Positions 19,561 to 20,145 of a DNA stretch of 64,000 bases are shown one piece after another. The position numbers and the translations under genes were made by a program. The DNA comes from a virus (taxonomy: Duplodnaviria > Heunggongvirae > Uroviricota > Caudoviricetes), in IMG/VR virus record IMGVR_UViG_2703718833_000007, positions 6,191 to 70,190 of that record; one strand, written 5' to 3'. The notes under the pieces are model-generated. The model was not told the origin of the DNA. It searched no databases and saw only the letters and a program-made list of their open reading frames with translations. The first letter of the stretch is position 1. The number at the start of each line of letters is the position of its first letter.

Positions 19561-20145
19561 ATGGCTAAGGCTAAAGGCATTAAGTTGCCTCAATTCAAAG
19601 TCCCGCTCTTTGAGCATACAACAGTTTTCTTTTGCCCGACCCGCGACATGTTCTATGAATTTTGCGAAAAGGCAGGGATCCCAATCGAACCTGATTTCGA
19701 ACTGGCAGGAGGATTAACACTTACTTGCACTGGCGAGAAAGGCGGTAACTTCTACGTGATCGCAGTATTCGACAATGAGTTAGGAACTCTGGTGCATGAA
19801 GCGGCCCACACTACGTTTCACGTATTAAGTGATGTAGGCGTAGTGGCGACCACTGATCCCAGCCATCCGGCAAACGAGACTTATGCTTACATGGTAGGCC
19901 GCATCTTTGATGCTTTCTTCCCCATCCTGGCGGAATCAAATGAAGCACAGGTGGCAGCAATGCAGGCAGCTGAAGTCGTAGAGAAGGCATTAGAACAGGC
20001 AGAAAAGGCGACTGATGCAGCAGAGCAGGCAGTAGAGCAGGCAGAGGAGCCGAAAGAAGAGAAAAAACCAGCTAAGAAAGGCAAACGTAAGCCTAAAGCA
20101 AAAGAGGCGCTTGTACCGCGTATTATGAGCTTTAAACGAGGCTGA
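19561..20145 (+). CDS. Hypothetical protein with HExxH zinc-metallopeptidase-like motif
   Basis: Track ORF 194 aa; LVHEAAHTTFHV motif; Ala/Glu/Lys-rich C-terminal tail. Confidence 0.45.
   Translation: MAKAKGIKLPQFKVPLFEHTTVFFCPTRDMFYEFCEKAGIPIEPDFELAGGLTLTCTGEKGGNFYVIAVFDNELGTLVHEAAHTTFHVLSDVGVVATTDPSHPANETYAYMVGRIFDAFFPILAESNEAQVAAMQAAEVVEKALEQAEKATDAAEQAVEQAEEPKEEKKPAKKGKRKPKAKEALVPRIMSFKRG

Follow-up and report, generated by a model that had tools for sequence, protein, structure and literature searches.

Small zincin-like peptidases are already known, as are zincin domains within phage proteins. The zincin-like MPTase core comprises a three-stranded sheet, an N-terminal helix, a helix carrying the HExxH motif and a further helix bearing a glutamate (PMC5512222). 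Minimal zincins achieve their fold with about 110 residues (PMC3890501). Here, we describe an open reading frame (ORF) of a tailed phage (Caudoviricetes) that probably specifies a domain of this sort. The DNA analysed, which we call the window, is a stretch of 64,000 nucleotides corresponding to positions 6,191 to 70,190 of IMG/VR record IMGVR_UViG_2703718833_000007. It is related to the mEp021 group of temperate coliphages. The ORF is a homologue of mEp021 gp49, annotated 'hypothetical protein', and DNA identity across the region is 90-93%. An initial annotation of the window had reported a 194-residue ORF at this location with an HExxH motif. This was correct, and HEAAH occupies residues 79-83 of the protein. 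At odds slightly better than even (roughly 55%), we consider the product to be a stand-alone, minimal zinc peptidase of the HExxH plus Glu type. It would be soluble, cytoplasmic and made late, with an accessory action on a host or phage protein.

The mini-Glu-zincins (proabylysin, provisionally MEROPS M95) and the mini-zincin Acel_2062 (3e11) resemble the phage domain in size, at about 110-125 residues. They also share the plan of the phage model. Hence, both have a three-stranded sheet, a backing helix, HExxH and then a third ligand on the next helix, with almost nothing beyond (PMC3890501). There are also differences. No significant sequence or Foldseek similarity connects the minimal zincins with the phage family. 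The former are cellular, being archaeal or bacterial, whereas the latter is phage-borne. The third ligand of 3e11 is the aspartate of HExxHxxGxxD, while the phage family has a glutamate 20-23 residues downstream. Finally, unlike minimal zincins, the mEp branch of the family adds 68 residues, in the form of a helix and a basic tail. A second point of comparison is provided by the MPTase domains of polyvalent proteins (Iyer et al. 2017; Pfam MPTase-PolyVal). The definition of their core is identical to that of the phage family, and both are phage-encoded among late genes. Furthermore, the source record of one homologue of the window protein (P0118) gives it the name 'PolyVal Metallopeptidase superfamily domain'. 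However, a polyvalent MPTase is part of a multidomain giant and the window protein is a solo domain of 194 residues. Pfam MPTase-PolyVal matched neither the window protein nor P0118, even at E ≤ 10.

The SprT-like family (PF10263), which includes Spartan and Wss1, is the only Pfam family touched recurrently by the phage proteins. Briefly, among 106 diverse members, it is the only one matched by more than two; 22 match at E ≤ 1, the best at 1e-4. All of these fall below the gathering score of 25.6 bits and the window protein itself has no match. In the two cases where match coordinates were examined, the similarity was confined to the region around the HExxH helix. A second source, independent of that naming P0118, labels another homologue 'SprT-like family protein'. 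In Spartan, too, a small zincin domain is accompanied by a basic region that probably binds DNA. The third zinc ligand of Spartan is a histidine, whereas the phage family has a glutamate. In addition, E. coli SprT contains the Zn_ribbon_SprT domain, but the C-terminus of the window protein has no Cys/His cluster. Comparison of the family profile with E. coli SprT, using hhalign, gave a non-significant probability of 5%. Given this result, we do not place the window protein in the SprT-like family. We found no literature match for a SprT-like protein in prophages near terminase.

Two further groups were considered. Similarity to ImmA/IrrE (M78) and CapP is non-significant, with M78 matched only at E of about 0.07-0.1. 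Note that the window gene lies in the late region, between spanin and terminase genes, and has no neighbouring helix-turn-helix repressor. The suggestion of an ImmA-like protein, made in the initial annotation, is thus not upheld. PF18894, 'Putative phage metallopeptidase', is likewise an uncharacterised HExxH phage protein, for which we found no functional literature. At 212 residues, it is longer than members of the phage family. While the HExxH helices align, the hhalign probability is a non-significant 2.4%, and we regard the two as separate families. Overall, the evidence does not establish the protein as a member of the SprT-like, PolyVal or M78 families.

We turned to structure prediction, the check proposed in the initial annotation. 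An AlphaFold2 model of the domain, built from the 106-sequence alignment, had a mean predicted local distance difference test (pLDDT) score of 94.9 and a predicted template modelling score (pTM) of 0.88. The model was read as an order of secondary structure elements. These are strand 11-13, strand 21-25, helix 28-38, strand 51-58, strand 63-69, helix 74-91 and helix 104-129. The element order matches both the MPTase core (PMC5512222) and minimal zincins (PMC3890501). Hence, the model indicates that a gluzincin-like (HExxH plus Glu) minimal zincin fold is probable. In a gluzincin, HExxH is on an alpha-helix, and this is the predicted location (helix 74-91). A glutamate is on the helix that follows; here, the invariant E106 is positioned on helix 104-129, together with Y110, and would ligate zinc. 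N-terminal to the active-site helix, there is a sheet of at least three strands and a backing helix. The predicted strands 21-25, 51-58 and 63-69, with helix 28-38, provide these. The model thus has the element order of a minimal zincin, rather than lacking the features of a metalloprotease fold, and the HExxH and glutamate are found on consecutive helices. A metzincin, also suggested in the initial annotation, was rejected. The alignment has no conserved third His/Asp and no Met-turn motif; the pattern is HExxH plus Glu. Consistent with a zincin, the best eight matches from a profile search of the PDB were all zinc peptidases (E 0.07-1.2), and the alignments shown coincide at the HExxH helix. 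Searches of PDB sequences with the single protein, or with a seven-sequence profile, gave nothing beyond noise, for example matches to uridine phosphorylase and to dynein light chain by way of the tail.

The initial annotation had cautioned that a single HExxH can occur by chance. This is fair, since HExxH arises in 1.1% of shuffles of the ORF protein. The 362 long reading-frame segments of the window contain four HExxH motifs; the three outside the ORF look accidental, at least one of them clearly so. Taken on its own, the HExxH of the ORF protein could be another such case, without enzymatic meaning. The family alignment decides the matter. It contains 106 diverse members, with 23-66% identity and a mean column identity of 17%, yet the columns for G51, H79, E80, H83 and E106 are invariant. 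No other column is, although Y110 is kept in more than 90%. Because H79, E80, H83 and E106 do not vary across the 106 members, the motif is not a product of chance. A second count, of about 149 aligned sequences, found H79, E80 and H83 in 99-100% and G51 in 99%. The spacing from H83 to E106 is 23 residues in the window ORF and 20 in most family members. The ORF was also compared with mEp021 gp49, with synonymous divergence (dS) of about 0.45. The ratio of nonsynonymous to synonymous divergence (dN/dS) was 0.033 for the domain, 0.145 for the tail and 0.059 for the whole ORF. We conclude that the ORF is a real gene under strong purifying selection, with domain and tail both constrained. An accidental motif is therefore extremely improbable.

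The family is large. An exhaustive HMMER search with the N-terminal 128 residues found 228 cluster representatives at E ≤ 1e-3, most of 110-140 residues. A word-indexed search with the ORF protein had found close E. coli prophage relatives only. The PHROGs family phrog_1365, of unknown function, was matched at E 6.1e-30, with residues 1-131 aligned to profile positions 3-124 of 127. The median length of family members is 123 residues and most are stand-alone phage proteins. Two side observations concern the profile and the motif. First, a giant protein of 5449 residues (P0167) has seven separate stretches that match the part of the profile for the N-terminal strand region (positions 3-24; E 1e-8). 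These matches may represent a short repeated motif rather than a peptidase domain. Second, an HEVGH sequence at position 10259 of the window is in a 176-residue segment (about 10000-10530, +) resembling an HNH/AP2-type endonuclease, where the motif appears accidental.

Several results weigh against assignment as a peptidase. In searches of Pfam and NCBIfam, no curated model reached threshold. Foldseek comparison of the domain model with the PDB gave no significant match, the best having E 0.18. The hhalign comparisons with SprT and PF18894, given above, must be counted here too. No substrate or partner gene is conserved beside family members. The basic tail is specific to one lineage, so DNA tethering is not a general mode of the family. 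Furthermore, fold does not guarantee activity, since the first minimal Glu-zincin to be solved showed no detectable activity (PMC3890501). The same precedent, and the weak similarity to true peptidases, would fit a zincin-like protein that is not a protease. Such a protein might be a metal-dependent hydrolase of some other substrate, or a metal-binding regulator or adaptor acting, for example, on DNA or the packaging machinery. Compatible with this, the gene is directly upstream of that for the small terminase, the tail encoded here is basic and resembles DNA-binding sequences, and the terminase N-terminus is similarly rich in Lys, Ala and Pro. Conversely, the catalytic glutamate of HExxH is kept in 99% of sequences, with the ligand glutamate and the tyrosine, none of which a purely structural metal site would need. 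In addition, every recurrent weak match is to a peptidase family. We therefore view a non-protease as unlikely, though it merits serious attention. The description 'candidate zinc metallopeptidase', used in the initial annotation, can be kept. The motif is supported by the conserved HExxH, Glu and Tyr residues, and the fold is made probable by a model with pLDDT of 95, while activity is putative.

If the protein is a minimal zinc peptidase, the zincin paradigm suggests how it might work. One zinc ion would be held jointly by H79 and H83, from the first C-terminal helix, and by E106, from the helix after it. E80 would activate zinc-bound water, as the catalytic base, and Y110, one helical turn beyond E106, could stabilise the reaction intermediate. 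A substrate polypeptide may dock against the small sheet, adding a strand to its edge. The Glu helix of the mEp-like branch is predicted to run into an acidic helix of about 35 residues, possibly a spacer or oligomerisation element. A Lys/Arg-rich tail of about 30 residues might then tether the enzyme to DNA or another polyanion. The N-terminus has no hydrophobic stretch able to act as a signal peptide or membrane anchor, and the protein is presumably cytoplasmic. In many lineages, the gene adjoins packaging genes or belongs to a late or structural module, so its likeliest role is to cleave, at a late stage of infection, a protein of the host or of the phage. This would be an accessory, rather than core, function. 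Coordinates are in Table 1. Note that residues 77-88, LVHEAAHTTFHV, include HEAAH, and that the region around the likely ribosome-binding site is identical in mEp021.

Table 1. Positions of the ORF and its features in the window.
Feature	Position	Strand	Details
Whole ORF	19561-20145	+	ATG at 19561, TGA at 20143-20145; 194 residues and stop
Likely ribosome-binding site, GAGGA	19548-19552	+	8 nt 5' of the ATG; read from sequence
Globular zincin-like core, residues 11-126	19591-19938	+	AlphaFold2 model and family profile search
G51, invariant glycine at the start of long strand 51-58	19711-19713	+	Family alignment
HEAAH, residues 79-83 (H79, E80, H83)	19795-19809	+	Predicted to supply two zinc ligands and the catalytic base; on helix 74-91
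E106-T-Y-A-Y110, start of the second C-terminal helix	19876-19890	+	E106 is the predicted third zinc ligand; Y110 is a likely catalytic helper
Acidic Ala/Glu/Gln-rich helix, residues 127-163, net charge -8	19939-20049	+	Predicted helical; prolongs the Glu helix
Imperfect DNA tandem repeats, periods 12 and 21, inside tail-coding DNA	19980-20061	+	Tandem Repeats Finder
Basic C-terminal end, residues 164-194 (PKEEKKPAKKGKRKPKAKEALVPRIMSFKRG), Lys/Arg/Pro-rich, net charge +10	20050-20142	+	Predicted disordered

Family members were always phage-borne and, wherever neighbours could be identified, co-oriented with them. They are common in prophages of gut bacteria. All of the mEp-type phage records that we examined contain the gene, and the closest cluster by itself has over 550 sequences, from E. 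coli prophages. Among isolates from human stool, phages of the mEp type reportedly match lambdoid phages in prevalence (PMC11893012). The homologue in ST64T is 44% identical; it follows the Rz spanin and one small ORF, and precedes dec and the small terminase. Using tblastn, homologues were found at comparable record positions in phage L (Orf129) and epsilon34 (gene 70). The same order, from lysis genes to terminase, occurs in prophages of Cronobacter, Klebsiella, Erwinia, Atlantibacter, Citrobacter, Pantoea, Kluyvera and Mixta, and in metagenomic phages. For temperate phages of Enterobacterales, this slot between lysis cassette and small terminase is the usual one, and the gene there has the orientation of the late genes. 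Phages with this placement have three types of terminase. At the two loci where gaps were readable (L002 and L007), few or no bases separate the homologue from one or both neighbours. The gene occupies boundaries between modules, usually the one immediately upstream of packaging genes. Two further observations can be made at related loci. In a Kluyvera sp. prophage (L024, 5376-6011), an ORF of PF18894 (E 1e-42, with HELYH) is immediately downstream of a family member, in the slot between lysis genes and terminase. In a metagenomic phage (L017, 147-749), a member follows a gene with a Pfam 'Sequestin' domain and precedes integrase and terminase.

Other positions are also used. In HK620, a 35%-identical paralogue, hkcC, is encoded on the late strand between the ejection-protein gene 16 and the tailspike gene. 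Our literature search found nothing relevant on hkcC. An intact homologue of hkcC, encoding 125 residues with HECAH and NETYCY, is present in P22 (BK000583.1, 13849-14226, +; L003, 2489-2866). It is not annotated as a gene in the P22 reference record, where only the sieA promoter and mnt terminator are marked. Members are also found between capsid and adaptor genes in SU10-like prophages (L029), in a Xenorhabdus prophage between the genes for tail tube and tape measure (L032) and, in a prophage of Pasteurellaceae, following genes of the lambda O and P type. In Salmonella diarizonae (L030), the member is at an island edge, beside a methylase and an invertase-like ORF. Elsewhere (L013), it is near ParE and antirepressor genes.

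The members inside structural modules (L029 and L032), and those beside gene 16 in P22 and HK620, or beside terminase in most other phages, raise the possibility of a packaged and injected effector. This would be the solo counterpart of polyvalent-protein peptidase domains. Loaded into the capsid and delivered with the DNA, it would process co-injected proteins or attack a protein of the new host as the following infection begins. According to Iyer et al., deployment in the capsid is likely for solo polyvalent domains encoded with late or structural genes (PMC5512222), and the source name of P0118, noted above, points the same way. Conversely, gp49 is absent from the 16 mEp021 virion proteins identified by mass spectrometry of gel bands, an approach that could miss low-copy proteins. 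All mEp021 virion proteins encoded outside the structural cluster have their genes on the upstream side of the lysis genes. There is no mention of gp49 in the mEp paper or its supplements. Moreover, the window protein is small and single-domain, rather than polyvalent, and Pfam MPTase-PolyVal is unmatched. Hence, we think it unlikely, if deserving of consideration, that the protein travels in the virion.

The variety of sites also bears on expression from the prophage. Module boundaries are typical for accessory genes. Together with the island edge, the ParE and antirepressor neighbours, and the position beside sieA in P22, this could indicate a conflict gene (moron). The product would then be a protease made in the lysogen that blocks other phages, as does Lit of e14, or that otherwise aids the host. 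In the window, a gap of 280 nucleotides (19281-19560) separates Rz from the ORF. It differs from that in mEp021 (L001, 3270-3632) by an indel of 59 nucleotides. The mEp021 record annotates a terminator (TERM_6), whose counterpart in the window gap is a weak hairpin; this could permit independent expression, although our terminator scan does not pick the hairpin up. The gap contains no promoter-like site and no convincing intrinsic terminator, and its predicted RNA fold is unremarkable (z 0.02). In most lineages, members are separated by few bases from, or overlap, co-oriented late neighbours, leaving no room for a promoter of their own. PADLOC found no match between the window protein and known defence-system proteins. 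A lysogenic conflict gene is therefore improbable, if only a shade more so than a virion-borne effector. From orientation and synteny, late expression with the lysis genes is a reasonable inference, as the preferred reading of a late-made peptidase supposes.

Immediately upstream, the window encodes an Rz-like spanin (18810-19280) with an embedded ORF for a lipobox-containing lipoprotein. Downstream, there are seven tandem hydrophobic mini-ORFs (20148-20799, +) of 22-32 residues, each amounting to little more than a single hydrophobic helix. The small terminase follows, from 20810. The placement between Rz and a peptide array, described in the initial annotation, is thus accurate. Five of the mini-ORFs are found in mEp021, nearly identical and unannotated, and other phage lineages with a homologue do not have them. 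The notion of a peptide-processing cluster was rejected since the mini-ORFs accompany the gene in mEp-type phages only. In the interval between endolysin and Rz (18301-18822, +), we also observed a 173-residue ORF with sequence features of an HNH/AP2-type endonuclease. A gene matching Pfam HNH_3 is at a similar place, within the lysis cassette, of an unrelated metagenomic phage (L005/L006).

In many phages, the gene follows a holin-endolysin-spanin cassette. Once the holin has opened the membrane, a lysis accessory factor might act on a protein of the envelope, for instance a lipoprotein anchored to the cell wall. The tail of the window protein has a weak alanine-zipper (Lpp-like) match that might fit. 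This match (Pfam Alanine_zipper, E 0.15) is non-significant and the tail is absent from most members. The protein has no signal peptide, lipobox or membrane segment, and paralogues and distant members are far from lysis genes. We regard such a role as very unlikely.

The initial annotation had described a low-complexity Ala/Glu/Lys tail. The tail is real but is better divided into an acidic helix and a basic, disordered end. These are an addition of the mEp-like branch, and of a few others. A full-length model, from a shallow alignment, was mediocre (pLDDT 77). It predicts a single helix at residues 103-161 and has pLDDT below 50 for the basic end. The acidic helix may be a coiled coil, spacer or oligomerisation element. 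Homologues of 172-211 residues differ by indels in the repeat stretch of the tail, and tandem repeats of 12 and 21 base pairs are probably the cause of these length variants. In close relatives, the basic end is nearly invariant, with no changes to K175, R176, K177, K179, K181, E182 or P186. Its Lys/Pro/Ala-rich composition resembles DNA-binding tails and, on that basis, it may bind nucleic acid or another polyanion. Across the family, the mean net charge of the last 15 residues is about 0. Because most members do not have it, we rejected the basic tail as a family-wide feature. A tblastn search with the tail alone had no matches, not even in mEp phages, and the low-complexity filter probably masked the query. 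Note that the small terminase begins (20810-20880, +) with MARTKKAKADDKKPAAKKVGRP, which is Lys/Ala/Pro-rich and resembles the basic end of the window protein. In a Klebsiella aerogenes prophage (L009, 5374-5514), an extremely Lys-rich ORF of 46 residues overlaps the 3' end of the homologue. This might be a separate-gene counterpart of the mEp basic tail, or it might be unrelated.

The pairing of a small zincin domain and a basic region recalls Spartan, notwithstanding the different third ligand and the unestablished SprT-like membership. A phage counterpart of Spartan/Wss1 could strip or degrade proteins on replicated phage DNA, allowing the packaging motor to thread it, or destroy a host immune sensor of terminase or portal. 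Under this proposal, the peptidase would be made together with terminase; for members of the mEp branch, the fused basic tail would provide direct tethering to DNA. We consider this a long shot. If true, it would be a new accessory step in late phage development.

The family has been clustered in PHROGs, and its members named by automated pipelines, yet it is absent from Pfam and NCBIfam, uncharacterised, and unannotated in P22. A practical gain is better annotation, as 'minimal zincin-like putative metallopeptidase'. Nothing yet indicates an unusual mechanism. Model phages carry members, including ST64T, L and epsilon34, where the gene follows the lysis genes, HK620 (hkcC) and P22. If inactive or dispensable, the protein would be one more small accessory gene product. 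If it is an active protease, it would be among the smallest known, and would represent a conserved accessory function of the temperate enterobacterial phage late operon, with possible roles in packaging, counter-defence or inter-phage conflict.

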